DNA of 64,000 bases from Patescibacteria group bacterium (GCA_049322215.1 JBMORU010000001.1:580023-644022); one strand, 5' to 3'. Shown: positions 3,657 to 38,942, numbered from the stretch's first letter. Notes: a model not told the origin generated them from the sequence alone. A program made the numbers and translations.

Positions 3657-5384
3657 ATGGCAAAAAACACCACTAAAAAGAAGTCTAAAACAACAAAGAA
3701 TTTTAAGATAGCCGTAGGGTATCCGCCCATACAAACAGACAAAGGAGTTCCGCTACTTTCTCAAAACAGACAATTTCAGTTTTTTAATGCTAAAACTTAC
3801 ATTTACCCTATGGTTCCAGCTTATGCAGCATCGCGTGCACAGGAGCAGGGTTATGATGTTGTATGGTTAGACGGAATCGCAGAAGAACGGTCTTATGATG
3901 AATGGATTGAGCAGCTAAAACAAGAGAAACCCGATATGCTAATGGTAGAAACAAAGTCTCCAGTTGTTAAGCAGCACTGGAAAATCATAGATGACTTGAA
4001 AGCTAAATTTCCAAATATGATTTTGGTTTGGGTGGGAGATCAAGTAACCTTCAGACCCAAAGAAACTATGGATAATAGTAAAGTCGATTATATTATTACC
4101 GGCGGTGATTACGACTTTATGCTAACAGATTTAGCTGATTCTATTACTAAAGGAAAAGAATTAGTTGGTGGCATTTGGGGGCGTGCCAACGATACGAGAG
4201 TGAAGCTTTCGGATTTTATAAAATATGAGGACTCTGATATTACAAATGAAAAAGAGGCATACTGGGTGAGTGGTCCCTTAAAGCAAACTCATAACTTAGA
4301 TGAACTCCCTTTTGTTGATCGTGACTTAACTAAATGGAAACTATACGCATATGCAAATGGTAACTATAAATATACTCCCGCAACTTACATGTACAGTGGA
4401 AAAGATTGTTGGTGGAACAGGTGTACCTTTTGTGTTTGGGATCATACTATAAATCCAATAGGTACTTACCGCAGATTTTCTCCCGAAAGATTATTCGCAG
4501 AAATAAAACATGTTGTAGATAATTACGGTGTAAGAGAAATATTTGATGATGCAGGAACTTTATTTGTAGGTCCCCCTTTAAAGAAATTTTGCCAATTAAT
4601 GATTGATTCTGGCTATAACAAAAAAGTAGTTTTAGGTTGTAACATGCGTTTAAACGCCTTAACTCAGGAATATTACGATTTAATGGGCGAGGCTAATTTT
4701 AGATTTATTTTATACGGAATGGAATCAGGCAACAAAGAAACTTTGGACCGTTTGGACAAAGGGTTAAAAGTACACCAAATAGAAGAGGGTGTTCGCATGG
4801 CAAAAAAAGCTGGATTAGAACCTCACTTAACAATAATGCTTGGTTATCCTTGGGAAACTAAAGAAATGGCTCAAAACACAATTGCGGTTGCAAAACGCTG
4901 TTTTAAAAAAGGTTATGTAGACACAATGCAGGCTACCATTGTAATTCCTTATCCTGGAACACCTTTATATAAGGAATGTGTAGAAAATGATTGGTTACTT
5001 GTAGATAAAGATGATTACGAGGCTTTTGATATGAGAGCTCCAGTTATGAAAATTCCTTTTAGTCAGGCAGAACTTATGGAACTCACTCAAGAGCTTTATT
5101 CATCATTTTTTACCCCTCAATACATTTTAAGAAAAGTAATGTCTGTGCGAAATTATGATGATGTTAAGTTTTTAGTATATTCTGCCTGGAAAATTGTTGG
5201 CCACTTGTTAGACTTTGACGAAGAGCAAACAAAAGTAAGCATGGCTTCCCCTAAATTTTGGGGTAGAGCAGCAAAAAGCTTAATAACACATCTATTGCCA
5301 AAGAAAAAAGATAAAGAAGTTGAGGAAATGATAAAAGAATCTGCAGAAATTGAAGCCAAACAAAAAGCTAAAATTAAGATTTAG
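3657..5384 (+). CDS. B12-binding-domain radical SAM enzyme (possible sugar C-methyltransferase or modifying enzyme)
   Basis: 575 aa. The N-terminal Rossmann-like cobalamin-binding region (MLMVETKSP...ILVWVGDQ) is followed by the Cys cluster C-WWNR-C-TF-C (CX4CX2C) in the position of the radical SAM motif. The C-terminal tail is Lys-rich. It opens the glycan locus and has its own SD. Confidence 0.6.
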   Translation: MAKNTTKKKSKTTKNFKIAVGYPPIQTDKGVPLLSQNRQFQFFNAKTYIYPMVPAYAASRAQEQGYDVVWLDGIAEERSYDEWIEQLKQEKPDMLMVETKSPVVKQHWKIIDDLKAKFPNMILVWVGDQVTFRPKETMDNSKVDYIITGGDYDFMLTDLADSITKGKELVGGIWGRANDTRVKLSDFIKYEDSDITNEKEAYWVSGPLKQTHNLDELPFVDRDLTKWKLYAYANGNYKYTPATYMYSGKDCWWNRCTFCVWDHTINPIGTYRRFSPERLFAEIKHVVDNYGVREIFDDAGTLFVGPPLKKFCQLMIDSGYNKKVVLGCNMRLNALTQEYYDLMGEANFRFILYGMESGNKETLDRLDKGLKVHQIEEGVRMAKKAGLEPHLTIMLGYPWETKEMAQNTIAVAKRCFKKGYVDTMQATIVIPYPGTPLYKECVENDWLLVDKDDYEAFDMRAPVMKIPFSQAELMELTQELYSSFFTPQYILRKVMSVRNYDDVKFLVYSAWKIVGHLLDFDEEQTKVSMASPKFWGRAAKSLITHLLPKKKDKEVEEMIKESAEIEAKQKAKIKI

Positions 5385-5398
5385 GCTATACTTGTAAG

Positions 5399-6085
5399 GT
5401 GAAAAATATACTAAAGCAAGACCCTACTATTCCTGTGCATGGGCGTGCAAAAAGAAATTTAACCTTTGTTAGCGATTCTTCCATAAAAAATAAAGATATC
5501 CTTGATATAGGTTGTGGTTATGGGTGGTTTGAACTTAATGCACTAAAAAAAGGTTGTAAGCATATTACTGGTATTGAAATTACAAAAACCGACTTAGCTA
5601 CAGCAAAAAAGTGCATTAAAGACTCACGCGCTGCTTTTAAAATAGGCAGTGCTATAGAATTACCTTTTGAGGATAGCTCCTTTGATACGGTTGTGTGTTG
5701 GGAAGTACTTGAGCACATCCCTAAAAACACGGAATCGCAACTTTTTGCAGAGGCATATAGGGTTTTGCGCTCAGGTGGAGCATTTTATTTATCCACCCCT
5801 CTTCACTCAATTAGCACATATTTAGACCCTGCATGGTGGTTAATTGGGCATCGTCATTATAAACCTTCTAAAGTAAAAAATTTTGCGAAAAAAGCAGGGT
5901 TTGCAATTAAAAAAGTTGAAACTGGTGGCGGATTTTGGGAGATAGTGAACATAAACAGCATACTAATTTGCAAATGGATTTTTCGCCGCGAACCCTTTTT
6001 TTGGGATTTTATAAATAAAAAACGTGATCAGGAATACAAAGGCAAAGGTATTATCAGCATTTTTTTAAGAGCTAAAAAACCTTAA
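5399..6085 (+). CDS. Class I SAM-dependent methyltransferase
   Basis: Motif I LDIGCGYGWF, post-II VCWEVLEHIP and LRSGGAFYLSTP. GTG start with a 4-nt convergent overlap. Confidence 0.7.
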   Translation: MKNILKQDPTIPVHGRAKRNLTFVSDSSIKNKDILDIGCGYGWFELNALKKGCKHITGIEITKTDLATAKKCIKDSRAAFKIGSAIELPFEDSSFDTVVCWEVLEHIPKNTESQLFAEAYRVLRSGGAFYLSTPLHSISTYLDPAWWLIGHRHYKPSKVKNFAKKAGFAIKKVETGGGFWEIVNINSILICKWIFRREPFFWDFINKKRDQEYKGKGIISIFLRAKKP

Positions 6086-7005
6086 AAACTTTTTCCGGTT
6101 TTCCATAAACTTAAATCTCTTTTCAGTATTTTTTCCAACTCTTCTATGTCTTCTAAGTAATATTCTCGTAATTTATTCTCTAATTTTTTGTTCATTTTTG
6201 GATATTTTTTATTAGTATGTGCAATTTTTTTGTAAATAGTTTTAATAGGATTTGATGTATTTATTATTCTATTTATTACCGGACTAAATCCGGTTTTGTA
6301 TGCGGTATTTACTACTAAATAAACTAAACGCATTAATACCGGAGATCTTATTTGACGTGTTGGGTTTACTCTTTGATGCAAAAATTTTGGTTTAAAGTTT
6401 TTGTCTACACCTAAAAATTTAAAAGCACCTTTTACTACTTTTTCCGGATTATCTCTTATATCGTCCTGCAATATAACATGAACGTTTTCTTGCCCAAAAA
6501 GGCTGTAGAGTTGTTTAATCAATTTTGCCCACTTTGGTTTGCTAGGGTGATAAAAATCGTCTTTAATTTTTGTTTTTAGTGCTTCTTCAAACGAATTGGG
6601 AATTAAGTGATAAATATTAGAATATTTCATATACCAGTACATAGAATGCAAAAAGCTTACTGGGTCTCTAATAGTTACAATTACTTTAATATTTGGAAAA
6701 GCCTTTTTTAATTTTTTTTGAGCTTTGCTATCAAAAATATAGTGAATACTAAACTCACCTTTTGTCTTACTTTTAGCATGAGAAAACTCTTGCGCATATT
6801 TTTCCCAAGATTTTATTCGCTTATTTTCGTAAACAATATTAGTCCAACCTTTAGAGGGAGATAAAAAAAAGTTAACTTCTTTGTGCTTTGAAAATCCAAT
6901 TTCAGGGTGTTCTTTTAAGCATGCCCAAAGCCATTCGGTGCCACATTTTGGAGTTCCTATTCCTATGAAATCTATTTCAAAATCTTTAGGCTTTTTGTCG
7001 TGCAT
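6082..7005 (-). CDS. Sulfotransferase family protein (PAPS-dependent)
   Basis: The 5'-PSB motif GIGTPKCGTEWL (PKxGTT-like) and the 3'-PB motif TIRDPVSFLHS are both present. It is encoded on the opposite strand inside the plus-strand glycan locus. Confidence 0.7.
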   Translation of the reverse strand: MHDKKPKDFEIDFIGIGTPKCGTEWLWACLKEHPEIGFSKHKEVNFFLSPSKGWTNIVYENKRIKSWEKYAQEFSHAKSKTKGEFSIHYIFDSKAQKKLKKAFPNIKVIVTIRDPVSFLHSMYWYMKYSNIYHLIPNSFEEALKTKIKDDFYHPSKPKWAKLIKQLYSLFGQENVHVILQDDIRDNPEKVVKGAFKFLGVDKNFKPKFLHQRVNPTRQIRSPVLMRLVYLVVNTAYKTGFSPVINRIINTSNPIKTIYKKIAHTNKKYPKMNKKLENKLREYYLEDIEELEKILKRDLSLWKTGKSF

Positions 7006-7053: not shown

Positions 7054-7851
7054 TTGTGCGTGACTGAAGGAATAAGGCAGGAAATAAATACGCATATAAA
7101 CTTGTTAAGAAGTCACTCAATTGAGCCTGATTTTAAATCTATTTACGATTTTCCAGTTTACAATAATATTTTAGTAGAAGACTTACACCTTATAAAAAAG
7201 TTATTTCCACAGGGGAGTAATATTTTAGATTTTGGTTGTGGTCGAGGGACTATTTCATATTTGCTTTCAAATAGTGGCTACAATGTAACAGGTATCGATA
7301 TTGGTTATGAAGATTTAGGCTCAGAATTTACTTCTTATGTTTTTTCTAAAGAAAAACAAAAACCCCTTTGGGATATAACAGCGAAGGCAAGCAAAAAAAA
7401 CATAAACTTTGAGTTTTATGCGGGTTTAGACATGACGCTTGAGGATAACAGCTTTGATGCTGTTGTAGCCTATGCAGTGTTAGAACATGTTGCTGACCTG
7501 TCTTTAACTTTGAACGAACTTCATAGAGTTTTAAAACCAGGAGGTCCTTTGTTTATATCTCGCACGCCAAATAAGCTTTCTCTTTTAGAAAACATGGCAC
7601 AGTTTTTAGGGTTTCCTGCGCACGAAAATACATATAGTTTTAAAGCAATGCAAAGTTATCTAGAAAACTCTGGTTTTAAGGTTATAAGTATTGAACTGGT
7701 GGATTTTTTTCCATCAAATTTACCAACTAAGTTTATAAATAATTTTTATCAAAGTTTTAGTGATGCTCTAATGAAACTAGAATTGTTAGTGAGAAAAACT
7801 CCTATAAATAAGTTTAGTCATCATTTTAGAATAGTTGCTCAAAAGATTTAA
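7054..7851 (+). CDS. Class I SAM-dependent methyltransferase
   Basis: ILDFGCGRGTISY, AYAVLEHVAD and LKPGGPLFISRTP motifs. Confidence 0.7.
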   Translation: MCVTEGIRQEINTHINLLRSHSIEPDFKSIYDFPVYNNILVEDLHLIKKLFPQGSNILDFGCGRGTISYLLSNSGYNVTGIDIGYEDLGSEFTSYVFSKEKQKPLWDITAKASKKNINFEFYAGLDMTLEDNSFDAVVAYAVLEHVADLSLTLNELHRVLKPGGPLFISRTPNKLSLLENMAQFLGFPAHENTYSFKAMQSYLENSGFKVISIELVDFFPSNLPTKFINNFYQSFSDALMKLELLVRKTPINKFSHHFRIVAQKI

Positions 7852-8929
7852 CATGCAGGAATTTAAATACTATCCTAAGGTTTCTTTTATAATGGGTACT
7901 TTGAATGCAGAACGTACTTTACGTGAATGTTTAGCATCTATTCGAATGCAAAACTATCCTCAAGAAAAAATTGAAATTGTTTTGGCCGACGGCGGTTCTA
8001 CTGATAAAACTTTAAAAATTGCAAAAAAGTATGGTGCTGATGTGGTGGAAAACAAATTAGTTACATCTGAATCAGGGAAGGCGGTGGCTTTAAAGGCTTC
8101 TACCGGAGAATTAATATGCTCTATAGATTCAGATAATATTCTTCCAACAAAAAGTTGGTTAAAAAAAATGGTTAAGCCCTTGGTTAAAAACCCTTCTTAT
8201 ATTGGCTCAGAAGCTATTCGTTTTACTTACAGAAAAGAAGACGGTTATATTGATAGATACTGTGCGCTTATAGGCATGAATGACCCTTTATGTATGTGGT
8301 TAGGAACCTATGATCGTATAAATACACTAACCGGGAAATGGACGGGGCTTCCTGTTAAATACAAAAAGAAAAATGGTTACATTGAAGTTTTGTTAGAACA
8401 CGGAAACATTCCAACAATTGGTGCTAACGGTTTTATGCTTAGAAAATCTATTTTTGAAGAAAACTCTGCTTTAGTGGGGGAATATTTGTTTGATGTAGAT
8501 TTACTAGAAATGATAACTGCAAATAAAGGACCCCAAAAATTTGCAAAAGTTTACGTTGGAGTTATACATTTGTATTGTGGATCAAGTTTAAAAAGGTTTT
8601 CTAAAAAACAACTGCGTCGTGTCAAAGATTATTTATACCGAAGAAATGTATCTGATGTGTTTATTACCAATACTTACAATGATAGAAGCTATACTTATGG
8701 GCAAGGTTCTGCATTAGCTTTATTTAAAAATATATTAAGGTTTGCTATTGAAACAGTTTTAGTATTCCCGCTTTTAATACAATCAATACGGGGCTACCTA
8801 AAAGTAAAAGATAAAGCCTGGTTTGCCCACATTATTTTGTGTTGGTTAACTCTACTAATGTATATGTATGGTACTGTCCAAAGTTTTTTTTCACGTAAAG
8901 AATTATCTAGGGAAAACTGGAAACAATGA
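7835..8929 (+). CDS. Family 2 glycosyltransferase (GT-A fold) with a C-terminal membrane segment
   Basis: N-terminal VSFIMGTLNAERTLRECLASI...IEIVLADGGSTDKT is typical of GT2 and includes a DxD-like SIDSD. Hydrophobic C-terminus. Confidence 0.75.
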   Translation: MLKRFNMQEFKYYPKVSFIMGTLNAERTLRECLASIRMQNYPQEKIEIVLADGGSTDKTLKIAKKYGADVVENKLVTSESGKAVALKASTGELICSIDSDNILPTKSWLKKMVKPLVKNPSYIGSEAIRFTYRKEDGYIDRYCALIGMNDPLCMWLGTYDRINTLTGKWTGLPVKYKKKNGYIEVLLEHGNIPTIGANGFMLRKSIFEENSALVGEYLFDVDLLEMITANKGPQKFAKVYVGVIHLYCGSSLKRFSKKQLRRVKDYLYRRNVSDVFITNTYNDRSYTYGQGSALALFKNILRFAIETVLVFPLLIQSIRGYLKVKDKAWFAHIILCWLTLLMYMYGTVQSFFSRKELSRENWKQ

Positions 8930-11127
8930 AACTACTTAAAAAAAATTTAAGCACACTTTTAGTTATTGCCCCAGCGATTGTTTTACTTTTACTTGTTTTT
9001 GCTACTAACTTAAAAGAAATTCCTGTAGAAACAAAAGAGCCACTATTAAATTTCACAGGAAACGAATCTTTACTATTATCTCCACTAGAGCCTGGAGATG
9101 GTTTTGCTGCACAAGCACAAGGTGCTCCAATTGACATTACTTTTAGCATTCCAACTACAATAAATGGGTTTTCATTTTTGTTTGGAGGCAATTTACATGA
9201 GGTAAGTTCATATTTAGCGGAAGATTTTGATATATATGTTTTATCTGCAAACGGTGAGTGGCACTCAGAAGCAGAAATTAGATCTAATAAAAAGGCAAGC
9301 TTTGTATATATGTTTGAAGATTCTCGTGAAGTGCTAGGAATTCGCTTAGTAATTCACAAGGCTCCTTTTAGTAATGCTGTTTTAATAAAGGATCTAAAAT
9401 TTTACAACTTGAAAACAGTAACAGTATTAAACGGCTTAACTCACTTTTTACAATCACAGAGTAAGTCAGTATTTTCATACTACTTTTATTCAATTATTTT
9501 TTACTTTTGGCTCATTATTCCTGGTTTTGTAGTTATGAAGTATATGAATACGCGACTGAGTTTAAAGTTTTCGGGAGAAAAATTATATGTCTTTGCTCCT
9601 GTTATATCCTTTTGTTTGTTGGCTGCGGTAACAACATTTTATTTGTTATTTAGACAAAAAATAATTTTTGATTTGTACTGGCTATATTTCTTGTTTAGCA
9701 TTTATTTGCTGATTAAAAATACATATTGGAAAGAAATAAATATTTCTAAGCAAATAATATTTGTTACCGCCTTTGCTTTGTTAATTACTACTTCCTTGCA
9801 AATAAAAAGAGATTATCTGTTTAATTTAAACTACATTGAGCATCAAATGGATGCTTTACAATATATGCCACACTATTTTTATGGAGGCTATTTTGGATAC
9901 CACGCCGATAATACTATGCCTTGGGGAATTGCGCGTGCCTACATTAATGATGCCCCTTTATATTCCGAAGAAGCCTCCCGTTATAGAATTGGCTTTGGTC
10001 CTGAAAGCGTTATAGACAGGACACCAATGCTACCTCTTATGGTAGCCCCTATATTGCGTACTTTCGGAGAAAGCCATTTCATTTACCAAAGATTTCTTAC
10101 AGTTATTATGCTTTTTTATTATCCAGCGGCGTTTATTTTGCTTAAAAGATACTTTAATGAAAAAACTGCGACTATTGTTTCTATTTTAATGCTTCTTAGT
10201 GTGCAGCTGACTTTTCAAGTAAATAATGTTGAAATTTATTATAAGTTTATAGCAATATTTCCTACGTTTTTGGCGCTAGTTTCCCTAAAGTCTAGTAAAA
10301 CTAGTTTATTTACTAAACATGCATTAGCAGGTTTATTGCTTGGGGTTTCGTACTTAATACACCCTATTACTTTATTTTTTGTGATTACTTTAGGTGTTTT
10401 ACACTTAAAAGGAATAAAACTTAACACGAATTATATTAAAAGGTCATTGTATCTTTTTGGGCCTGTGTTGGTTTTGTTTGCTGTTTGGATGTTGTTTACA
10501 CTTTACATTAGATCAATTGCTCCAGAGCACGCCTCTTTAAGGCAGGCAATTTATGTGGAAGAAGTGTCACGTATATCAACAGAGCCTCTTTTAAATAAAC
10601 TATATAATGTTGTAAATATTTTTGTTCCTGATTTTCAACGACGCGCTAATTCATATAAGTTGTTTTCTTCTGATTATTTCAGAATAGAATTTTCGCGATT
10701 ATCTTTAATTGCAGCAGTCACACCTTTCTTTTTGTTAACTTTGGTTTTAAAAGGGTTTAGGAAAAAGTTTTTTCGCAAATACTTTGCACACTTTGTTTTT
10801 GGGTTATTTCCATTTGTTGTTTATTTAGCATTTTTTCACAAATACTCACTTGGGGGTTACATATTGCTTTACCCTTTCACGCTTCCATTTTTGTTTGGCT
10901 TAATAGTTACTTTGCTACAGCGCATTGAACTTGAAAAAAGAATTTACATTTACCTTTCGTATCCGGTTTTTATGTTGGTTCCTTTTTATTACATTTCCGA
11001 AGTTTTCACAAAGTTACTGCACAAAAATTTTACTGTTTATACAATGTCCTTTATATTGTTTTCACTCTATATTTATTTGTCGTTCTTGCTAATTGCAAAG
11101 GTTACAAGGTATAAAGGAAACCAATGA
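8926..11127 (+). CDS. Large polytopic membrane protein (putative GT-C-like glycosyltransferase or polymerase) with an N-terminal extracytoplasmic beta-rich domain
   Basis: 733 aa. It has a TM anchor, a ~170-aa soluble domain, then more than 10 predicted TM helices. The function is assigned by context only. Confidence 0.45.
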   Translation: MKLLKKNLSTLLVIAPAIVLLLLVFATNLKEIPVETKEPLLNFTGNESLLLSPLEPGDGFAAQAQGAPIDITFSIPTTINGFSFLFGGNLHEVSSYLAEDFDIYVLSANGEWHSEAEIRSNKKASFVYMFEDSREVLGIRLVIHKAPFSNAVLIKDLKFYNLKTVTVLNGLTHFLQSQSKSVFSYYFYSIIFYFWLIIPGFVVMKYMNTRLSLKFSGEKLYVFAPVISFCLLAAVTTFYLLFRQKIIFDLYWLYFLFSIYLLIKNTYWKEINISKQIIFVTAFALLITTSLQIKRDYLFNLNYIEHQMDALQYMPHYFYGGYFGYHADNTMPWGIARAYINDAPLYSEEASRYRIGFGPESVIDRTPMLPLMVAPILRTFGESHFIYQRFLTVIMLFYYPAAFILLKRYFNEKTATIVSILMLLSVQLTFQVNNVEIYYKFIAIFPTFLALVSLKSSKTSLFTKHALAGLLLGVSYLIHPITLFFVITLGVLHLKGIKLNTNYIKRSLYLFGPVLVLFAVWMLFTLYIRSIAPEHASLRQAIYVEEVSRISTEPLLNKLYNVVNIFVPDFQRRANSYKLFSSDYFRIEFSRLSLIAAVTPFFLLTLVLKGFRKKFFRKYFAHFVFGLFPFVVYLAFFHKYSLGGYILLYPFTLPFLFGLIVTLLQRIELEKRIYIYLSYPVFMLVPFYYISEVFTKLLHKNFTVYTMSFILFSLYIYLSFLLIAKVTRYKGNQ

Positions 11128-12107
11128 TTATTACACAAACACCTTTAAGAATAAGTTTTGTTGGTGGAGGAAGTGATTTAGCCTCTTTTTATAAGCACTC
11201 TTATGGTGCTGTAGTTTCTACAAGTATTGATAAATACATTTATATAACTGTAAATAAAAAGTTTGATTCAAAAATTAGAGCATCTTACTCTAGAACTGAA
11301 ATGGTAGATAATGTTAGCGATCTTCAACACCAACTAATTAGGGAAGCATTAAAGTTGACTGGAGTAAAAAACGGAATAGAAATCACTTCAATTTCAGACA
11401 TTCCCTCTACGGGAACCGGACTGGGATCTTCAAGTTCTTACACTGTAGGTTTAATAAATTCGTTGCGTGCTTATAATAATAAAATATCAAGTAGTGCTTA
11501 TTTAGCAGAGAAGGCCTGCCAAATAGAAATAGAAAAATGCGGAGAGCCTATTGGTAAACAAGATCAATATGCGGCCGCTTATGGTGGTTTAAATTACATT
11601 AAGTTTAATTCCGACGGAACAGTTGACGTTTCGCCCATATTAATTTCAAACAAAGTGAAAAATAAGTTACAAGATAATTTGTTAATGCTTTATACTGGCA
11701 TCACTCGTTCGGCTTCTAAAATTTTAGAAAACCAGTCAAGAAATGTGCAAGGAGAAGATACAAAAAAAATAATTTTGAGACAAATGGTTCAGCTAGCTGA
11801 AGAAATGCGCCTTGTGCTGGCTGAAGGAAATTTAAGCAAGTTTGGTAATTTACTAGATATTAACTGGGAATTAAAAAAACAACTTGCCGGAGGTATTTCA
11901 ACTCCCATAATTGATGAATGGTATAAAAAAGCTAAAAATGCAGGAGCTTTGGGGGGTAAAATTTTAGGTGCCGGTGGTGGTGGCTTTTTGCTTTTATATG
12001 CTCCTAAGTCTAGACACCCAGAAATTCAAAATGCACTAAAAGATTTAAAATCAATACCTATTAAATTTGAAAACGACGGTAGTAAAATTATTTTCATAAA
12101 GGAATAA
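11124..12107 (+). CDS. hddA: GHMP-family sugar kinase, HddA-like D-glycero-alpha-D-manno-heptose 7-phosphate kinase
   Basis: N-terminal MIITQTPLRISFVGGGSD and the GHMP ATP motif PSTGTGLGSSSSYTVGLINSL, plus a C-terminal GAGGGGF. It sits directly upstream of gmhA. Confidence 0.65.
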   Translation: MIITQTPLRISFVGGGSDLASFYKHSYGAVVSTSIDKYIYITVNKKFDSKIRASYSRTEMVDNVSDLQHQLIREALKLTGVKNGIEITSISDIPSTGTGLGSSSSYTVGLINSLRAYNNKISSSAYLAEKACQIEIEKCGEPIGKQDQYAAAYGGLNYIKFNSDGTVDVSPILISNKVKNKLQDNLLMLYTGITRSASKILENQSRNVQGEDTKKIILRQMVQLAEEMRLVLAEGNLSKFGNLLDINWELKKQLAGGISTPIIDEWYKKAKNAGALGGKILGAGGGGFLLLYAPKSRHPEIQNALKDLKSIPIKFENDGSKIIFIKE

Positions 12108-23897: not shown

Positions 23898-23909
23898 TAT
23901 CATTTACTA

Positions 23910-27036: not shown

Positions 27037-27088
27037 CTTTCTCTTTTACAATCTTATTAGTAACGGAAATAAGTAAGGAGAGTGTGAA

Positions 27089-27370: not shown

Positions 27371-27440
27371 AAATATGGGTGTGCTTTGAAAATTCAAATC
27401 ACACCCATAATGTTTGTCAATTTACGTTATAATTGCCTAT

Positions 27441-32700: not shown

Positions 32701-32739
32701 TTAAAGCAAGAAATTGAGCTTAAATTAAATGCTTCTTAG
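29722..32739 (+). CDS. Fusion protein: O-antigen polymerase/ligase-like (Wzy_C-type) membrane domain, then a GT39/GT83 (ArnT/PMT-like) GT-C glycosyltransferase domain, then a C-terminal coiled-coil
   Basis: 1005 aa. The first ~430 aa are polytopic with a Wzy-like loop. The second half starts with LPWDEAIYAEIAKNM...GDYIVQY...KPPLMMWL...FGMSEFAVRLPSALLG, the DE-containing first loop typical of ArnT/PMT enzymes. The tail is rich in E/L/K. Confidence 0.55.
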   Translation: MNIEVIFLILIFVGSLYVIHRNLRDSLLLAMLLSLLLHKELFSIYRWDVLPVRVFMLALTFYAFLFIVHRYRHKINFKEISSYLRDPFIFLLGSIWVARGISLLNTKNLQASIFLYGFFTTVIVLGFAIYYTFNSSSDILSFIKKYIYLLFFTCLFGFIQFFIYLKFDYIVGALWNVPGHLPRIGSVFWDINHYGGLLASLLPVVGVLVLVEKKVKTKLLYLLILIPMTGILLMTSSRTAWLLGLTAFLVFVVVLLVRKFKLKGILYLAGFLILISIPVIREYNIKSSPFRAYVRQNFHYRIDSFDSHFLLIQGAFQVFEKYPYIGGGYGSFFEHFSKTKIAPTYFARDPAGLNTRVPAHTIWGEIFSETGILGSSLFILLMLLVILTLLYAALTLQNKRDYLLSTAMLGSTIGWGVAGIFYSYNSEFFWLIFFLYFTFGVKVLGDSYNVTNIVNYFFTSNKTYLAFVASVSFCLIFIGLGKNHLLPWDEAIYAEIAKNMNVTGDYIVQYWKETIPWFEKPPLMMWLMSFSTKLFGMSEFAVRLPSALLGFGTVLVTYYFGRKLFNKTAGLLAALVLVTTTQFLYYSRTSMLDVSLTFFITLSLYMYYLARSKNTNKLFVFSGVFGGLAFMVKGVVGLLVFPIIGLYELYLLFSGELKLKSKTILQYINLFISYLVIALPWHIASYAIYGREFYDTYIGYHVLTRATQEIEDKGQPWYWYLIVMKVSMRIWFVALLGAFPFSLVSASFAKLKYFSSNARQHAFLVIWVLVVLIFFSSSKSKLVWYVMPLYPAASLMVGAFMERVLTIIDSKLFSTRNALFRYLAVYFIVLGGLFYLFLSKNLVYTSDLTGSQAELLQVKDATFGTESIVYADRIELPLILFYSDSPFEVVDFGPLKDTLSSAKYSQEIIFITKESRFSDFADIYNRLELEGSRNEWVLGRLPSKHEIDLETLHELEVELERFDKDIAQKREDNEFIPPHVTGDRERIFNEIETLKQEIELKLNAS

Positions 32740-33934
32740 CTTGCTCTGTTTTAAAGTAAATATAAGAACCTGAAATCAGTAATGCACCTAAAGCAGCTAT
32801 TAACTGGGCTACAGCTAATCCTGGAAGTTCATACAATGGTATTAGCAAATAAGATCCTGCAATTAAAGCAAATAACTTAACTAATGTAATTATTAATAGC
32901 GGCATTGTATTTTTTTCAATAAAATAATAGCTTTCCATAAACGTGTGAATTGCTGTAATCGCAGACGCAATAATTAATATATCAAGAAGTTTTTTAGACT
33001 CTGCAAATTTACTTCCAAAAACTATTTCTACAAAAAATTCTGCACTAAACATTGCAAATATTGCTAAAATCAAAACACCCATTCCTAGTAGTAATGTTTC
33101 TCTCCAGTTATATTCATTGTTACTACGCTTCTGTTTCGCTTGTTTTGGTAGCAGGACGGTAAAAATCCCCAATGCAACTAATGTGAAAATGTTTGCAATT
33201 TTATCTGCTAATGAATATATGCCTACATCTGTGAAAGTTTTAAAAAGTTTTGCTAAGCCGTTGCCTATTGCAGACCATCCAAACCCTATTCCCTGGGCAG
33301 CGCCACCAGATATAGATTTGCTTAATAAAGATAAAGTTTCAGTTGTTACAAATCTTGGTTGTTTAAGTTCTTTTGGCACCAGCACATACATAACTGTGCA
33401 ACTTAACATTGATAATGCAAAAATTGCGAAAGCACTTGTTAATGTAAGGTTAAATATACCCACGAAAACAAGCACAGCAAATAATCCTTTAATTGCAGCC
33501 GGTATAGTGTTTATTAAAACCAAATGTATAAACATTTCTACCCGTTGAAAATACGCAAAAAGTAAAAGATTTATTCCATAGGCTAATAACCCTACAATAA
33601 AAAGCCAAGTTATATTTTGATCTAGTAGGTTAAAAACTTTTAACAGCACTAATGTTATTGGTACCGCTACAATAAATTGCATGATTTTTAAGGAAAACAG
33701 TGTATCTTTTAGTTTTCTTGTATCTGCAATAGATTCTGCTACAAAAATGGAATTGGTTCCCAAATCCATTAGTTTCGACAAAAAAACCAACAAACTTGTC
33801 ATTAATGCGTATTTGCCAAAATCTTCAACAGCCAAGTTTTTAGCTACAGCAGTTAAAAAGGTAAAACCTAAAACTGCATTAAATACATTACCTCCGCTTA
33901 CTATAGAAATTTTTAAAATTGATTTTCTCAGCAC
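32720..33934 (-). CDS. wzx: Polysaccharide/oligosaccharide flippase of the MOP superfamily (Wzx-like)
   Basis: 404 aa with about 12 TM helices. The N-terminus LRKSILKISIVSGGNVFNAVLGFTFLTAVAKNL is typical of Wzx. It is convergent with the upstream gene and overlaps it by 20 nt. Confidence 0.6.
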   Translation of the reverse strand: MLRKSILKISIVSGGNVFNAVLGFTFLTAVAKNLAVEDFGKYALMTSLLVFLSKLMDLGTNSIFVAESIADTRKLKDTLFSLKIMQFIVAVPITLVLLKVFNLLDQNITWLFIVGLLAYGINLLLFAYFQRVEMFIHLVLINTIPAAIKGLFAVLVFVGIFNLTLTSAFAIFALSMLSCTVMYVLVPKELKQPRFVTTETLSLLSKSISGGAAQGIGFGWSAIGNGLAKLFKTFTDVGIYSLADKIANIFTLVALGIFTVLLPKQAKQKRSNNEYNWRETLLLGMGVLILAIFAMFSAEFFVEIVFGSKFAESKKLLDILIIASAITAIHTFMESYYFIEKNTMPLLIITLVKLFALIAGSYLLIPLYELPGLAVAQLIAALGALLISGSYIYFKTEQAKKHLI

Positions 33935-33993: not shown

Positions 33994-35139
33994 ATGAAAA
34001 TAGGTATAGATTGCAGAATGTGGAATGAAACGGGGGTGGGGCGTTATATTCAAAATATTGTTGGGATAATTGAAAAGCAAGATAAAAAAAACCAGTATGT
34101 ACTTTTTGTGTTGAAAGATAATATGGGTATGAATTTGCCCAGCAATTTTGAGTTGGTAGAAGCAAATATACGCTGGCACTCTGTAGCAGAGCAATTTGTT
34201 TTGCCCTTTATTATGCTAAGGCAAAATTTAGACTTGCTACATTCACCACATTTTAATGTGCCCATTTTGTATTATAAAAAGTTCGTCGTGACTATACACG
34301 ACCTTACTATACTTCGTGTTAAAACCGGCAGGGCTACTACTTTGCCTTTCCCCATTTACTTTTTAAAACGGTTAGCTTTTAAACTTGTTTTGCTTAATTC
34401 TGTATATAGATCAAAAAAAGTTTTTACAGTTTCTAAGTTTGTGCTTAAAGATATATGTAAAACTTTTAAAGTACCCGAAAGTAAAATTGTACTTACACCA
34501 AATGCTGTTACCGGTAAGTTTTTCAAAGTAAGTGCCCCTGAAGTAAAACCTGTGCTAAACAAATACAATATAGATTGCCCATATATTTTTTACATAGGTA
34601 ATGCACACCCACACAAAAACTTAGAGCGGTTACTTAATGCTTTTGAAAAAGTAAACAAAAAGTTTCCTGATGTAAAATTAGTTTTGGGCGGGTCGAAACA
34701 GTTTTTTTACGAACGTTTAGAAAAAGAATGGCAGAATAAACCTGTATATGAAAATATCAAGTTTATTGGTTTCGTAGATGATGCTGATTTGCCTGCAATA
34801 TATTCTGGCGCAGATTTATTTGTGAATCCATCTTTGTACGAAGGTTTTGGAATTCAATTGCTTGAGGCTTTTGCCTGTGGTACTAGAGTAGTTTGTTCTA
34901 ATACTACATCATTACCAGAAATAGGAGGTGCCGCTGCGCAATATTTTAATCCACGTAACGTTGATAGTATGGCATCTACAATAATTTCTGCCTTAACCTT
35001 TAAAGATACCTCGAAGATTGAATTAGGTTTTGAGATAGTAAAAAAGTATTCCTGGAAGGAGTCTGCTCAAAAAACTCTAGACATTTATTCCATGTTTGAA
35101 CCTGTACTAGTGGATTCTCCTGAGGGTTGGCATTTATAA
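33994..35139 (+). CDS. GT4-family glycosyltransferase
   Basis: EGFGIQLLEAFACGTRVVCSN. Confidence 0.7.
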   Translation: MKIGIDCRMWNETGVGRYIQNIVGIIEKQDKKNQYVLFVLKDNMGMNLPSNFELVEANIRWHSVAEQFVLPFIMLRQNLDLLHSPHFNVPILYYKKFVVTIHDLTILRVKTGRATTLPFPIYFLKRLAFKLVLLNSVYRSKKVFTVSKFVLKDICKTFKVPESKIVLTPNAVTGKFFKVSAPEVKPVLNKYNIDCPYIFYIGNAHPHKNLERLLNAFEKVNKKFPDVKLVLGGSKQFFYERLEKEWQNKPVYENIKFIGFVDDADLPAIYSGADLFVNPSLYEGFGIQLLEAFACGTRVVCSNTTSLPEIGGAAAQYFNPRNVDSMASTIISALTFKDTSKIELGFEIVKKYSWKESAQKTLDIYSMFEPVLVDSPEGWHL

Positions 35140-35151: not shown

Positions 35152-36270
35152 ATGCGTTTAGCTTTAGTTCACGATGATTTAATACAGTTTGGAGGTGCCG
35201 AGAGCTTGCTGTTGGCCATGCATGAAATTTGGCCGCAGGCACCTGTGTTCACCTCAGTAGCCTCAGAGAAGTGGCAACAAGTATGTAAAGATAAAAGAAT
35301 AAATCTCAATACATCTTTTATGCAGAAACTGCCCAAAATAGAAAGATTAAATAGATATTATGCCCCTTTACATTTACATCCAATTGCTTTTGAGAGTTTC
35401 GACTTTTCTCAGTTTGATGTTGTACTTTCTGTATCTGCCAGATTTTCACATGGTGTAATTACTAAGCCGTCTACAAAACATATATGTTATATGAATTCTC
35501 CGGGACGTATGTTTTGGGAATCTAAGGACTATTTTGATTATGAAAACTTTTTAGGAGCTAAAAAGCTGAAGAATCTTGCGTTAAGTTTGTTAAAGCTTCC
35601 TTTAGCGAGTTTACGCATGTGGGACTACACTGCAGCACAGCGTGTTGACTATTTTATTGCTAACTCAAAAACGCCTCAAGCTCGTATTTATAAATACTAT
35701 AAAAGAAACTCTGAAATTATTTATCCCTTTGTTGATAACAAGAAATTTTTAAATGTAAAGTCAAAAAAGGGAAGATATTATGTTGTCATTTCAAGACTAA
35801 ATGCCTGGAAGCGTGTTGATTTAGCTGTGCAGGCCTGCAGTAATTTAAAGCTGCCTTTGGTAGTGATTGGGGATGGCCCAGAGCTAGAAAAATTAAAAAG
35901 TATTGCTGGCAGCACTGTTAAGTTTACTGGTTACGTTTCTGAAGAAGAAAAAATAAAGCTGCTTTCTGAATGTATAGCTTTAATTAATACGCAATACGAA
36001 GATTTTGGCATAGTTCCTTTAGAAGCTATGGCAGCTGGGAAACCCGTTATTGCATATAAGAGAGGTGGTGCTTTAGAAACTGTGATTCCAAATGTTACAG
36101 GAACTTTTTTTGAATCACAAAGCATTGAAGAATTAATTAACGTTTTAAAAGCCTTTGAACCCAATGTTTATTCAGAGTTTGATTGTAAAGATAGAGCCCG
36201 TGAATTTGATAAAAGTGTTTTTACTCGCAGACTTAAAGATTTTGTTTATTATGTAAGTAATTTGGCATAA
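35152..36270 (+). CDS. GT4-family glycosyltransferase
   Basis: EDFGIVPLEAMAAGKPVIAYKRGGALETV. Confidence 0.7.
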   Translation: MRLALVHDDLIQFGGAESLLLAMHEIWPQAPVFTSVASEKWQQVCKDKRINLNTSFMQKLPKIERLNRYYAPLHLHPIAFESFDFSQFDVVLSVSARFSHGVITKPSTKHICYMNSPGRMFWESKDYFDYENFLGAKKLKNLALSLLKLPLASLRMWDYTAAQRVDYFIANSKTPQARIYKYYKRNSEIIYPFVDNKKFLNVKSKKGRYYVVISRLNAWKRVDLAVQACSNLKLPLVVIGDGPELEKLKSIAGSTVKFTGYVSEEEKIKLLSECIALINTQYEDFGIVPLEAMAAGKPVIAYKRGGALETVIPNVTGTFFESQSIEELINVLKAFEPNVYSEFDCKDRAREFDKSVFTRRLKDFVYYVSNLA

Positions 36271-36310
36271 AATTATGATATTATGCTAGGGCAACTTAGC
36301 AAATTATATT

Positions 36311-36946
36311 ATGTACGACATAGGTAAAAGAATAATTGATGTTATTGGTTCTACATGTGCGCTACTTCTGTTTTCTCCAATAATGATAATTACTTCTACT
36401 CTTATAAAAATATATTCTCCCGATGGTCCAATATTTGCGGACATTCCTATGCGTGTAAGTAAAGGTGGGGGGGAGTTTAGAATGTATAAGTTTCGCTCCA
36501 TGATTCCAAATGCGCATGAATGGTTGCTAAATAATCCGGAATGGTATAAAAAATATCAGGAAAATAATTATAAACTTGAAGAAAATGAAGATCCGCGTTT
36601 AATTAAAGGAGGTAGGTTCATAAGAAAGTTTAGTATCGACGAATTACCTCAATTCATCAATGTGTTAAAAGGTGACATGAGTATTGTTGGCCCACGGGCG
36701 TATTACCCGTTTGAACTTAAAGAGCAAGCAGAAGCGTTTCCGGAAACTAAGGCATACATTGGACTTCTTAAGGAAGTAAAGCCCGGAATTACTGGTCCCT
36801 GGCAAGTAGGTGGCAGATCTAAAATAGGATTTGTTGATAGAGTCAAAATGGATGCAGAATATGCCAAAAGGAAATCTTTAGTGTATGATTTACTAATAAT
36901 TTTGAAGACGCCGGTAGCTGTCTTCACGAGTAAAGGAGCTTATTAA
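36311..36946 (+). CDS. Undecaprenyl-phosphate sugar phosphotransferase (bacterial sugar transferase, WbaP/WcaJ C-terminal domain type); the initiating enzyme
   Basis: One N-terminal TM helix, then KFRSM...DELPQFINVLKGDMSIVGPRA, the hallmark of the Bac_transf family. Confidence 0.75.
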   Translation: MYDIGKRIIDVIGSTCALLLFSPIMIITSTLIKIYSPDGPIFADIPMRVSKGGGEFRMYKFRSMIPNAHEWLLNNPEWYKKYQENNYKLEENEDPRLIKGGRFIRKFSIDELPQFINVLKGDMSIVGPRAYYPFELKEQAEAFPETKAYIGLLKEVKPGITGPWQVGGRSKIGFVDRVKMDAEYAKRKSLVYDLLIILKTPVAVFTSKGAY

Positions 36947-36947
36947 T

Positions 36948-38942
36948 ATGCCAGAATCACAATTTTGGAAACCATCAAATAATATGAATACAGCAGCAAT
37001 CAAACCTAAAAAAAATGGAAAAGCGCTAAAAAACTTAGGTTTAAGCGGCATAGTTGTATTGATAATTATCGGGTTGTTTGGTTTAGCAAGCTTTATTTTT
37101 GTAATAAAGCCAGGTTTAGCTTTATCTAAGCAAGCAGAGCTTTTGAAAGCAGACACTGCTAACATACAGGAAGCTCTATTAAGCCGTGATTTAGTTGCAT
37201 TTAACGATGCACTAAATAATACTGAAGCCCATTTAAATGATCTTAGAAAAGAGCGTGACAATAATTTTGGTTGGGCAAAAAATTTTGGACCTACTGCCCC
37301 ATATTACTCAGATTCTGAGCATTTTATTAATGCAGGTTTGCATGCGGTTGCTGCAGGCAAAGAGTTTGCTGTAGTAATTGAACCTTTTGCAGATGCAGTA
37401 GGTTTAAAAGTGGCTCCTAAAAATTCTGAGGTGACTGAATCTACTGACTCTGTAGAATTAACCGATGCAGAGCAAGCAAGTTTAAATGAAGAACCTGAAG
37501 AATTAAGTTTAGCTGAAGCATTTTCAACATGGATAGGTGTTATGCCTGCTGTAGCAGACGATTTAGATGGTGTAATTGCAGAATTAACTCTTGTTGGTGA
37601 CGAGTTAGAACAAGTTGATCCAAACAGATACCCTGAACAGGTAAGAGGTATTTACGTAAGAGATACAATTGAACAAGCGCAAGCAGCTTTATCTCAATTA
37701 AACGAGTATGCTCCTGACCTTAAAAGGGCTCTAACTATTGTACCTGGCATTTTAGGTGTTGATACCGGTGAAAAGCGTTACATGATTATAATGCAAAATG
37801 ATAAGGAATTACGTGCAACTGGTGGTTTTTGGACTTTCATTTCAACATTTAAGATTAATAACGCCTTACTAAGTTCTGACTTTACTTCGTATAATTCTTA
37901 TTATGTTGACGATGTGTTAAACACTATTGATGCTATTCACACTTTTCCAACAGTACCTGATGCGTATGCACGACACTTAAAAGTAGAAAGAATGTTTGCT
38001 CGTGATGCAAACGTGTCACCTGATCTCCCAACTTCTGTAGATCAATTCATGGAATTTTGGGAGTTAGCACAACCTTTAGCTCCTTCTCAAATAAAATCTG
38101 TTGATGGTGTTTTTACAATTGATACAAAAGTTTTAGAAGAGCTTCTTGAGGTTACTGGGCCAGTTACAGTTAATGGAGTAACCTATACTCACGAAAATGT
38201 AGTGTTAGAACTTGAGCGTTTAGCAAGTTTAACTTTGCGGGAGCAAGTAAACAGAAAACAAATTTTAGGCGATATGATGGAAGCGATGTTAGTAAACGTG
38301 TTTGAGTCTAACAGCAATTTATGGCCAAAAATAATTGAAAAAGGCGTTGACTTAGCTGTTAGAAAACACATTAGTGGTTATTTATTTGATCCTGAAGCCC
38401 AAGCATTGTTAGAGCGTTATGGCTTCGCTAACGTTATTGTAAATAACGTATCCGGTGATTACGCATATGTTGTTCAAACAAATCTTGGTGGTGATAAAAC
38501 CAACTGGTTTGTTAATAAGGAAATTACCCATACTTTAGAGCAAGAAAACGGTCGTTGGGTAAGAACAGTTAAGGTTTCTTATAATTACCCACAACCTTCT
38601 GCTGAATATGGTCCTTTTATTAAGAGATTTAGAGATTGGGTAAGAGTTTATGTTCCATTGGGCTCTGAGCTTATAGAAATAAATGGTTCTCAAGATGTAA
38701 CCGGTGAAGGCGAAGAAAAAGATCGTACTTACTTTCATGGTTATGTAGAGGCAGGCCCCGGGGAAGCTGCAGAAATCACATTTAAGTATTACTTACCTGA
38801 GAACACAATTGAAGGTAATACCTATAACCTGTACATTCAAAAGCAATCAGGTATAGACATTGAAACTCACAATGTAATTGTTAATGGCAAATCAGAATCT
38901 GTTGAGTTTAAACTTGATAAACAGTACTCAACTGCGCTGTAG
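36948..38942 (+). CDS. Membrane-anchored extracytoplasmic protein of unknown function (DUF4012-like by size and architecture)
   Basis: 664 aa with a single N-terminal TM (LSGIVVLIIIGLFGLASFIFVI) and a long coiled or acidic region. It is the last gene of the glycan locus. Confidence 0.45.
   Translation: MPESQFWKPSNNMNTAAIKPKKNGKALKNLGLSGIVVLIIIGLFGLASFIFVIKPGLALSKQAELLKADTANIQEALLSRDLVAFNDALNNTEAHLNDLRKERDNNFGWAKNFGPTAPYYSDSEHFINAGLHAVAAGKEFAVVIEPFADAVGLKVAPKNSEVTESTDSVELTDAEQASLNEEPEELSLAEAFSTWIGVMPAVADDLDGVIAELTLVGDELEQVDPNRYPEQVRGIYVRDTIEQAQAALSQLNEYAPDLKRALTIVPGILGVDTGEKRYMIIMQNDKELRATGGFWTFISTFKINNALLSSDFTSYNSYYVDDVLNTIDAIHTFPTVPDAYARHLKVERMFARDANVSPDLPTSVDQFMEFWELAQPLAPSQIKSVDGVFTIDTKVLEELLEVTGPVTVNGVTYTHENVVLELERLASLTLREQVNRKQILGDMMEAMLVNVFESNSNLWPKIIEKGVDLAVRKHISGYLFDPEAQALLERYGFANVIVNNVSGDYAYVVQTNLGGDKTNWFVNKEITHTLEQENGRWVRTVKVSYNYPQPSAEYGPFIKRFRDWVRVYVPLGSELIEINGSQDVTGEGEEKDRTYFHGYVEAGPGEAAEITFKYYLPENTIEGNTYNLYIQKQSGIDIETHNVIVNGKSESVEFKLDKQYSTAL

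Follow-up and report, generated by a model that had tools for sequence, protein, structure and literature searches.

The 64,000-nucleotide stretch analysed here (the window) comes from a Patescibacteria group bacterium (GCA_049322215.1, JBMORU010000001.1:580023-644022), has a GC content of 34% and carries nearly all of its genes on the plus strand. Positions 3657-38942 hold 27 tightly packed open reading frames (ORFs), 25 of them co-directional and two on the minus strand, with many start/stop overlaps. Their domain identities were established by Pfam searches with all window ORFs of at least 100 aa and by NCBIfam and PDB searches, and most of the domain calls made in an earlier note on this DNA were upheld. 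The interval can also still be described as a locus for the biosynthesis of a surface glycan, including its methylation and sulfation and probably the supply of heptose. Comparison with related loci and contigs, designated by L numbers (L005, L073 and others), places these genes in a wider frame: the interval probably comprises the variable interior and the 3' anchor of a super-locus, the main one for cell-envelope glycan in a bacterium of candidate division WWE3, operating through the pathway proposed below.

The conserved core and the variable interior

The interval opens with the core gene of the super-locus (3657..5384, plus strand), which encodes a 575-aa B12-binding radical S-adenosylmethionine (rSAM) enzyme whose closest relatives belong to WWE3 (Patescibacteria). 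Both domains expected from the earlier note were recognized by Pfam, Radical_SAM (PF04055) with 60 bits (cut-off 29.5) and the N-terminal B12-binding domain (PF02310) with 33.9 bits against a cut-off of 32.1, a marginal score; the latter domain is also annotated in most homologues. By these sequence features the protein is assigned to the cobalamin-dependent (class B) rSAM enzymes. Its cysteine motif CWWNRCTFC (Cys251, Cys256 and Cys259; window 4407-4433) has the spacing Cx4Cx2C, which differs from the canonical CxxxCxxC, and the three cysteines are invariant in 13 homologues. The best NCBIfam match is HpnJ (TIGR03471), near full length with an E-value of 1.9e-46 and 158.9 bits, missing the cut-off of 577.6; BchE is also among the best families, and there are partial NCBIfam matches to C- and P-methyltransferase families. 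HpnJ and BchE are non-methylating cobalamin-type rSAM enzymes, the former contracting the ring of a glucosamine that is installed by a family 2 glycosyltransferase (GT2) in the hopanoid pathway, whereas cobalamin-dependent rSAM sugar C-methylases, for example MoeK5 and GenK, exist as well (PMC9204698). Since the best family matches are the non-methylases, the C-methylation suggested in the earlier note is kept as only one of the options for this enzyme.

A pattern scan for relatives of the rSAM enzyme, with one genome taken per species, yielded 471 genomes, and the best 80 of these, used for the neighbourhood counts, belong to WWE3, Roizmanbacteria, other Microgenomates and one Moranbacterium. 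Throughout these 80 the enzyme is kept at 61-86% identity (median 66%), whereas a tblastn comparison of all locus proteins with the related loci showed that everything 3' of it is hypervariable. The constant neighbours lie upstream: when ORFs from 79 loci were clustered, 66 of the loci proved to have a GT2, 54 a further GT2 and 54 a Wzx flippase, accompanied by PMT-type glycosyltransferases of the GT-C fold and an LPG_synthase_TM protein. An 86-aa 4Fe-4S ferredoxin (L082, 6266-6526, upstream of the window) is retained near the rSAM gene in 56 of the 80 loci, often directly before it, at a median identity of 56% and up to 80%, and is likely the dedicated reductant of the radical-SAM cluster. 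Median identities within the related loci fall from 66% for the rSAM enzyme and 56% for the ferredoxin to 52% for the GT2, 47% for the PMT-type proteins and 42% for Wzx. The same partner genes are present in the genome from which the window derives, as was seen by walking upstream in the Logan contig L082, where the cluster runs on in the same direction for at least 9 kb beyond the window start in the order two PMT-type GT-Cs, Wzx, a fused double GT2, the ferredoxin, a 336-aa protein, five strain-specific genes and the rSAM gene. The rSAM gene, which the earlier note had counted among the tailoring genes, is therefore no strain-specific tailoring gene but the most conserved gene of its neighbourhood, with its partners (the ferredoxin and two GT2s) situated upstream of the interval. 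From this arrangement we infer that the substrate of the enzyme is most likely a sugar or lipid-linked sugar produced by the neighbouring GT2s, the reaction being either a rearrangement or a C-methylation.

At the 3' side, the conserved anchor is a gene encoding a 1005-aa fusion (29722..32739, plus strand), in which a Wzy_C domain of the O-antigen ligase/polymerase type in the N-terminal half (43.4 bits, cut-off 31.7) is followed by an ArnT-like GT-C module in the C-terminal half (PMT_2, 99.3 bits; ArnT structure 5ezm, E 2e-23). This fusion is found WWE3-wide, in at least 120 clusters with 45-52% identity and the same three Pfam domains. The locus tags of the Wzy_C/GT39 fusion and of the rSAM enzyme differ by 125-130 in two named WWE3 genomes, which suggests that both genes are roughly 25 genes apart there if the tags step by 5, and the same two anchors appear to frame a variable interior in other WWE3 genomes. 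From these comparisons, the super-locus is predicted to be framed by PMT-PMT-Wzx-GT2-GT2-ferredoxin-(336 aa)-rSAM ... Wzy_C/ArnT-like fusion-Wzx, the 5' part of this frame lying upstream of the window.

Between the anchors, a backbone of the form rSAM-GT2-GT4-MT-GT4-...-479-GT4-GT4-GT4-fusion-Wzx(-), in which GT4 stands for a family 4 glycosyltransferase, MT for a methyltransferase, 479 for a 479-aa GT-C and (-) for the minus strand, was recovered piecewise in L005, L016, L017, L020 and L073 at 37-74% identity. The order is rSAM-GT2-GT4-MT-GT4-MT-479-GT4-GT4 in L073, rSAM-MT-479-GT4-GT4-GT4-fusion-Wzx(-) in L020, rSAM-GT2-GmhA-GT4-MT in L005 and GT2-GT4-MT-GT4 followed by a homologue of the 1352-aa protein (without its methyltransferase-like domain) and the 532-aa protein in L017. 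Relative to this backbone the window carries as insertions a methyltransferase/sulfotransferase/methyltransferase block, a 733-aa GT-C with a family 32 carbohydrate-binding module (CBM32) together with a sugar kinase, the methyltransferase at 13846 with a 142-aa protein, and the genes of the 1352-, 532-, 273- and 161-aa proteins. Several of these recur as cassettes: in L087 the sulfotransferase (54% identity), the two methyltransferases (44% and 50%) and the GT2 (60%) occur together with a 735-aa GT-C; L085 has the kinase (61%) abutting the gene of a 729-aa member of the 733-aa family, with a ferredoxin gene and that of a distant rSAM enzyme alongside; in L086 the rSAM gene is accompanied by the GT2 and by genes for a 739-aa protein and a small membrane protein; and L090 has the full core followed by a GT2 and the sulfotransferase. 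Judged from these alignments, the strain-to-strain diversity is a matter of cassette insertion into a shared backbone.

The 35 kb delimited in the earlier note are thus not a self-contained unit but the variable interior of a super-locus found throughout WWE3, pieced together from cassettes that also occur apart from one another in other genomes. Its limits fared differently. The 3' limit stands because a terminator-like hairpin (38964..38985, plus strand; 9-bp stem with 6 GC pairs, then a T-run) directly follows the last gene, whereas the 5' limit does not, since the co-directional cluster continues upstream.

The first part of the window (1..3583, plus strand) is the tail of the five-gene, strain-specific insertion that splits the conserved ferredoxin/336-aa to rSAM operon. 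The insertion (L082, 7635-12974) comprises genes for 770 aa (with a faint M23 match), 266 aa, 98 and 163 aa, and 426 aa (with weak beta-propeller matches); a hydrophobic segment is present at the N-terminus of at least the 266- and 426-aa proteins, and no homologue of the five genes was found within 10 kb of the rSAM gene in the 80 related loci. The five genes could encode secreted or surface proteins. In another metagenome (L083, ERR15087771), the 98- and 163-aa ORFs (~1500-2295) are joined in one gene of 261 aa, from which the window sequence departs by a 1-nt deletion and a 3-nt indel near 1776; the split gene could be a frameshifted pseudogene, a case of phase variation or an assembly error. 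Contig L085 (GCA_040960175.1, JBFOMP010001238.1) encodes, besides the kinase and the 729-aa CBM-GT-C, a distant rSAM enzyme (34% identity) with an FAD/NAD-binding reductase, a ferredoxin, methyltransferases, a GT2 and an epimerase, a gene set from which it follows that the rSAM/ferredoxin/glycan association reaches beyond close WWE3 relatives.

Glycosyltransferases and modifying enzymes of the interval

Seven GT4 genes were found, all on the plus strand, where eight had been proposed, and a hidden Markov model built from the seven detected no further one at E <= 1. Five belong to the backbone, namely those at 12681..13853 (assigned by Pfam; collinear homologues of 46-49% identity in L005, L017 and L073), 16120..17319 (Glycos_transf_1, 76.6 bits; 41% identical in L017), 25813..27036 (best match TuaH, below cut-off; 50-57% identical in L016, L020, L031 and L073), 27414..28589 (Glycos_transf_1, 128.5 bits; synteny in L016, L020 and L073) and 28586..29725 (assigned by Pfam; 52-54% identical in L016 and L020). 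The remaining two, at 33994..35139 and 35152..36270, match Glycos_transf_1 with 111.6 and 103.4 bits, respectively. Two GT4s also match PF20706 ('GT4-conflict') at 29-31 bits; a defence-system reading of these matches was discarded, as the regions concerned reach 112-128 bits with Glycos_transf_1 and lie in glycan synteny.

The single GT2 predicted for the interval was confirmed by Pfam at 7835..8929 (plus strand; Glycos_transf_2, 70.7 bits). It ends in two membrane helices (residues 300-348), its family occurs near the rSAM gene in ~37 of 81 loci (median identity 46%), and it abuts genes of the 733-aa family in L086 and L087. From this topology and neighbourhood, the enzyme is probably a polyprenyl-phosphate-sugar synthase serving as partner of the GT-Cs; its assignment on sequence as a GtrB/ArnC/DPM-type synthase proved unsupported.

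Instead of three GT-C-like or Wzy-like polytopic proteins, as described earlier, the interval encodes five GT-C modules and one Wzy_C domain, the modules being located in the 733-, 1352- and 479-aa proteins, in the C-terminal half of the 1005-aa protein and probably in the 532-aa protein. The 733-aa protein (8926..11127, plus strand) consists of an N-terminal anchor, an extracytoplasmic CBM32-like domain and a GT-C membrane module. It has no Pfam match (E <= 10), only a weak CBM32 hint was obtained by phmmer against the PDB, and 59 relatives were found among 1.84e9 cluster representatives. Its AlphaFold2 model has a predicted local distance difference test score (pLDDT) of 89.6, and Foldseek matched residues ~30-165 to CBM32 (2xqx) and the membrane part to AglB, ArnT and Pmt4; by hhalign, the family was related to PMT families with 95-96% probability and to the AftD-like family with 96%. 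The 1352-aa fusion (17297..21355, plus strand) is laid out as an AftD-like GT-C module (~1-400), an extracytoplasmic region that includes a CBM-like beta domain (~860-1080), a membrane helix (~1085-1103) and a predicted cytoplasmic methyltransferase-like domain. It has only 8 relatives among 5.8e9 proteins, just one of which contains the C-terminal domain, and phmmer against the PDB returned nothing useful for the protein or for that domain. The best Foldseek match of its model is AftD (6w98, E 1e-6), then STT3, AftA, ArnT and PglB, with the beta domain resembling CBM22/CBM4. Asp41 (in GGDW) and Asp328, corresponding to the acidic residue that GT-C enzymes conserve in their first extracytoplasmic loop, are invariant and mutually aligned in the 733- and 1352-aa proteins, and on their structural models both are assigned to the GT-C fold glycosyltransferases.

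The 532-aa polytopic protein (21357..22955, plus strand) has ~10 transmembrane helices, follows the 1352-aa homologue in L017 and is probably also a GT-C. The 479-aa protein (24369..25808, plus strand) is a putative GT-C-type membrane glycosyltransferase of the backbone (hhalign 94% to a PMT family), with homologues of 44-52% identity in L020, L031, L073 and L091, where the same GT4s follow. Three further ORFs on the plus strand encode small proteins: a 142-aa membrane protein with two to three hydrophobic segments (14724..15152; no Pfam or NCBIfam match), a 273-aa protein with an N-terminal hydrophobic segment (23023..23844; no Pfam, NCBIfam or PDB match and no homologue in related loci) and a 161-aa protein with ~4 transmembrane helices (23871..24356). 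Pfam at E <= 10 gave nothing for the 532-, 479-, 273-, 161- and 142-aa ORFs. Members of the 161-aa family lie directly 3' of the rSAM gene in at least 16 related genomes, so the protein may belong to the core, as a flippase or accessory subunit, and have been displaced by 20 kb in this genome.

The genes for initiation and flipping were correctly recognized in the earlier note. A small monotopic phosphoglycosyl transferase of 211 aa (36311..36946, plus strand), the initiating enzyme, matches Bac_transf with 180 bits and TIGR03025 with 226 bits, missing the cut-off of 296, and a Wzx-type flippase on the minus strand (32720..33934; Polysacc_synt, 49 bits) occupies the same position on the opposite strand in L016 and L020. 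The operon ends with a DUF4012 membrane-anchored protein (36948..38942, plus strand; PF13196, 74 bits; one N-terminal transmembrane helix). Elsewhere in the window, as also noted before, there is an LCP-family glycopolymer-to-peptidoglycan ligase (50900..51994, minus strand) that matches PF03816 with 104 bits and TIGR00350 with 90.6 bits, above the cut-off of 62.3; by its sequence it is a candidate for the attachment step of the locus glycan.

A GHMP sugar kinase (11124..12107, plus strand; GHMP_kinases_N and _C) adjoins a SIS-domain isomerase (12110..12694, plus strand; SIS_2). The best NCBIfam matches are HddA (NF049969) for the former and gmhA (TIGR00441) for the latter, which agrees with the pair named in the earlier note, though both lie far below the named-protein cut-offs (156.6 bits against 600 for HddA; 93-95 bits against 209-276 for the gmhA models, with 93 against 209 for TIGR00441). 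GmhA-like homologues are present in L005 (51% identity) and in L029, a related WWE3 genome in which an NTP_transferase-GHMP kinase fusion lies beside the GmhA-like gene and makes a nucleotide diphosphate-heptose route plausible in the lineage. For the GmhA-like/HddA-like pair, the probable role is the supply of heptose.

Four standalone class I S-adenosylmethionine-dependent methyltransferases, all on the plus strand, exceed the Pfam threshold (68-94 bits): 5399..6085 (228 aa; Methyltransf_11, 77.8 bits; a 50% identical homologue in the same cassette of L087), 7054..7851 (265 aa; Methyltransf_23, 73.8 bits; 44% identical in L087), 13846..14655 (269 aa; Methyltransf_25, 75.5 bits) and the backbone enzyme 15236..16123 (295 aa; Methyltransf_11, 94.2 bits), the most conserved of the four (53-74% identical in L005, L017, L030 and L073). 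Of the five paralogous methyltransferases claimed before, these four stand; the fifth, the C-terminus of the 1352-aa protein, is sub-threshold. It aligns by hhalign (90.7%) over the second half of the methyltransferase fold (motifs IV-VI) only, its glycine loop (motif I) is degenerate (LEVGN), and it has no PDB or NCBIfam match. The paralogy is distant, since the mutual identity of 27-33% rules out recent duplication of the four. The tailoring density, considered unusually high in the earlier note, is high by the standards of Escherichia coli but not exceptional among relatives, a high methyltransferase content being typical of the lineage: at least one methyltransferase-like ORF is found in 35 of 43 full-length (~21 kb) related loci, and at least three in 7.

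The sulfotransferase on the opposite strand (6082..7005, minus; 307 aa) was confirmed as a member of the 3'-phosphoadenosine 5'-phosphosulfate (PAPS)-dependent type by Pfam (Sulfotransfer_1, PF00685; 45.9 bits, cut-off 22) and by a full-length match to PDB 3rnl (E 2e-20), in which the conserved 5'-phosphosulfate- and 3'-phosphate-binding loops are aligned (GTPKCGTEW and R-D-P). Arg113, Pro115 and Ser121 are invariant in 5 homologues, and no NCBIfam family matches. The gene recurs in the super-locus of L035, L044, L062, L087, L090 and L091, and a metagenome scan returned 14 loci with an alignment-based query and none with a single-sequence query. Two or three tandem homologues per locus occur in the metagenome contigs L095 and L098, in the former beside methyltransferases and a distant rSAM gene (22% identity).

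The only large intergenic gap in the cluster, 27036-27414, holds a 93-aa ORF (27089-27370) without a family match (Pfam at E <= 10), and may be a module junction or an internal promoter. Downstream of the operon, DNA-repair/SOS-type genes (RecO, DinB and LexA, the latter two on the minus strand, and UvrB; 39053-41734 and 58316-61819), a small 462-aa RelA/SpoT homologue (44360) and the start of the division and cell wall (dcw) cluster with MraZ, MraW and a penicillin-binding protein (47059-50509) were identified. In the 80 relatives, the 10 kb on either side of the rSAM gene contain none of the housekeeping genes found at 39-62 kb of the window, so that flank synteny could not be used. An integrative island was considered and rejected, there being no tRNA or Rfam element anywhere in the window.

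A possible pathway and its alternatives

The initiating phosphoglycosyl transferase and Wzx, two hallmarks of the Wzx/Wzy pathway, are both encoded in the interval, and a route can be proposed in which the former would start a polyprenyl-diphosphate-linked oligosaccharide that is lengthened by up to seven cytoplasmic GT4s. The class I methyltransferases and, in this strain, the PAPS-type sulfotransferase would decorate the oligosaccharide or the lipid- or nucleotide-linked sugar donors, inside the cell to judge from the solubility of these enzymes and the cytoplasmic location of their cofactors, and the GmhA-like/HddA-like pair would probably supply heptose. Wzx would then flip the intermediate over the membrane, where the Wzy_C domain may polymerise or ligate it. 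Outside the membrane, the five GT-Cs would add sugars from polyprenyl-phosphate donors, probably made by the GT2 at 7835, and the carbohydrate-binding modules of two of them would hold the acceptor or the growing glycan, the product ending on peptidoglycan (via LCP) or on protein. What the donors and acceptors are, how the steps follow one another, where the methyl and sulfate groups are added and how the product is attached are all matters of inference.

Several observations weigh against this reading. The link between the rSAM enzyme and the glycan is drawn solely from gene neighbourhood. No locus protein reaches the NCBIfam cut-off of a specific named protein, so that specificities are unassigned and the product is not predictable, in agreement with the earlier note; no characterised cluster was matched either. 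No Pfam domain of a Wzz/polysaccharide co-polymerase (PCP) chain-length regulator occurs in any window ORF, and no PAPS-synthesis gene was found in the window by Pfam. GmhB and HddC are absent from the window, as stated before, since neither an NTP_transferase (nucleotidyltransferase) nor a HAD domain is present in any ORF of at least 100 aa. The LCP gene is unlinked, 12 kb from the operon. The best matches of the GT2 at 7835 are generic GT2s, the dolichyl-phosphate hexose transferase model scoring only 26 bits; the GT-C call for the 532-aa protein is weak (hhalign 75% to a PMT family and 83% to the 733-aa family); the model of the 1352-aa protein (first 1115 residues) was built from 8 sequences and has a mean pLDDT of 64, with 80-93 in the membrane part; and its C-terminus has a best Pfam methyltransferase score of 23.7 bits against a cut-off of 30, a weak call.

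The interval could alternatively be a self-contained 35-kb locus for one exceptionally tailored glycan, with the rSAM enzyme as a strain-specific sugar C-methylase, as would fit its place as first gene of the co-directional run, abutting a methyltransferase, the known C-methylases MoeK5 and GenK (PMC9204698) and the partial matches to C- and P-methyltransferase families. This is quite improbable, as the rSAM enzyme is kept at 61-86% identity while all genes 3' of it are hypervariable, its conserved neighbours are upstream, its best full-length matches are the non-methylases HpnJ and BchE (PMC9204698) and the interval is a cassette mosaic; the comparative data suggest that its presence is independent of the variable genes. 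An interval devoted mainly to protein O-glycosylation of pilins or surface-layer proteins, in which Wzy_C would be a PglL/PilO-like oligosaccharyltransferase and the PMT-type GT-Cs would be protein O-glycosyltransferases instead of builders of a peptidoglycan-linked polymer, appears rather unlikely. Pfam Wzy_C covers PglL-type O-oligosaccharyltransferases as well as O-antigen ligases, and the lineage is not expected to make the lipopolysaccharide on which a WaaL-type ligase could act; several GT-Cs match PMT/PMT_2, Pmt4 is among the fold matches and the chain-length regulator is absent. However, an LCP ligase is present in the window, and the matches to ArnT and AftD, which glycosylate a lipid and a polysaccharide, respectively, are at least as good as those to the PMT enzymes. 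Nor was an acceptor protein identified, and two GT-Cs have CBM domains, which speaks for glycans as acceptors.

It is also conceivable, if unlikely, that several independent glycoconjugate pathways (a Wzx/Wzy polymer, a GT2/GT-C decoration and a membrane lipoglycan) are co-located without a single product. That would agree with the count of two Wzx genes, one of them upstream of the window, at least three GT2 domains and, with the two upstream, at least seven GT-C modules, and also with the separate occurrence of the modules in other genomes and the example of mycobacteria, in which lipomannan/lipoarabinomannan and arabinogalactan employ many GT-Cs for different polymers. Against it, the window has only one phosphoglycosyl transferase, L073 contains both backbone halves in the same order in a single run, and the genes are co-directional and overlapping with one terminator at the end. 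The variable interior of one envelope-glycan super-locus is thus the reading that we prefer.

A more far-reaching and only tentative proposal concerns the GT2-GT2-ferredoxin-rSAM core of WWE3, Roizmanbacteria and other Microgenomates, which might make a non-canonical lipid-linked sugar (ring-contracted, carbocyclic or C-branched) through an HpnJ/BchE-like rearrangement or a MoeK5-like C-methylation; the GT-C/methyltransferase fusion forms part of the same proposal. If true, a cobalamin-dependent radical enzyme would be a near-universal, probably essential step of envelope biosynthesis in much of the Candidate Phyla Radiation (CPR), and a GT-C fused to a cytoplasmic methyltransferase could couple modification across both sides of the membrane.

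Comparison with known systems

The surface glycans of Patescibacteria are essentially uncharacterised, and a 2024 perspective on the group leaves glycans, polysaccharides and S-layers unmentioned. In an epibiotic Saccharibacterium, predicted exopolysaccharide genes were essential or fitness-relevant, and a role in host interaction was speculated (PMC10633639). WWE3 and related lineages invest ~5% of a ~1.1-Mb contig in one glycan super-locus, and its conserved core with a hypervariable cassette interior is the pattern expected of a surface structure under diversifying selection by hosts or phages. The presence of sulfotransferases in a lineage of minimal metabolism raises the question of the source of PAPS and cobalamin. 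The rSAM family (>470 species-level members with fixed genomic partners), the CBM32-GT-C family and the AftD-like GT-C/methyltransferase-like fusion are testable objects. No report was found in the literature of sulfotransferases or sulfated glycans in CPR bacteria, of B12-rSAM enzymes in Microgenomates or of rSAM enzymes in polysaccharide loci, nor any paper on the elements listed below as new in Patescibacteria.

With the Wzx/Wzy clusters for O-antigen, capsule and S-layer glycans (slg), the locus shares Bac_transf, many GT4s, Wzx, a Wzy_C protein, the GmhA-/HddA-like pair, methyltransferases and the presence of conserved flanks around an interior that varies. The S-layer glycan of Aneurinibacillus thermoaerophilus contains D-glycero-D-manno-heptose derived from the GDP-activated form, which is made by GmhA, HddA, GmhB and HddC. 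The window differs from such clusters in lacking Wzz/PCP, GmhB and HddC, in its five embedded GT-Cs, in the fusion of Wzy_C to an ArnT-like GT-C and in having no locus protein above a named-protein NCBIfam cut-off, and the super-locus in having a B12/radical-SAM enzyme and ferredoxin in its core. The mycobacterial and corynebacterial AftA-D, Emb and PimE/Mpt machinery, whose donors are polyprenyl-phosphate sugars, likewise has multiple GT-Cs in one envelope-glycan locus and an LCP ligase, and AftD, the best fold match, shares with the 1352-aa protein the succession of GT-C, CBM-containing soluble domains and C-terminal helix; the differences are the low identity (~9-12%), the absence of arabinose/galactan genes, the monoderm-like CPR host and the methyltransferase-like domain fused to the GT-C. 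The ArnC/ArnT, GtrA/GtrB/GtrC and CsbB/YfhO systems, which glycosylate outside the cytoplasm with two or three components, are similar in that a membrane-anchored GT2 repeatedly lies beside a GT-C (the 733-aa family) with small 4-transmembrane-helix proteins nearby, and ArnT matches the C-terminal half of the 1005-aa protein (E 2e-23). Unlike in these systems, the GT2 of the window is not demonstrably GtrB-/ArnC-like, Pfam gives no GtrA match for the small membrane proteins and the GT-C has an N-terminal CBM32.

In hopanoid biosynthesis by HpnI/HpnK/HpnJ, a GT2 adds N-acetylglucosamine and the rSAM enzyme HpnJ contracts the sugar ring (PMC9204698). HpnJ is the best near-full-length match of the window rSAM enzyme, and GT2s are the conserved neighbours of the latter; the score of 159 bits against a cut-off of 578, the Cx4Cx2C motif, the dedicated ferredoxin and the fact that no hopanoid genes were seen set the two systems apart. 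Bacterial carbohydrate sulfotransferases of polysaccharide loci, the rhizobial NodH/LpsS/KpsS and the cyanobacterial synechan xss genes, share with the window enzyme the PAPS-type fold and motifs inside a glycan cluster; the latter differs by its CPR lineage and by having neither an NCBIfam match nor a PAPS-synthesis gene in the window. All superfamilies of the locus are therefore already known, and its logic is that of a Wzx/Wzy cluster joined to ArnC/ArnT-like or mycobacterial GT-C chemistry. What is new is their combination, with a conserved B12-rSAM/ferredoxin core, a Wzy_C-ArnT fusion as lineage-wide anchor, a CBM32-GT-C family, the fusion of an AftD-like GT-C with a methyltransferase-like domain, and sulfotransferases in the WWE3 lineage.

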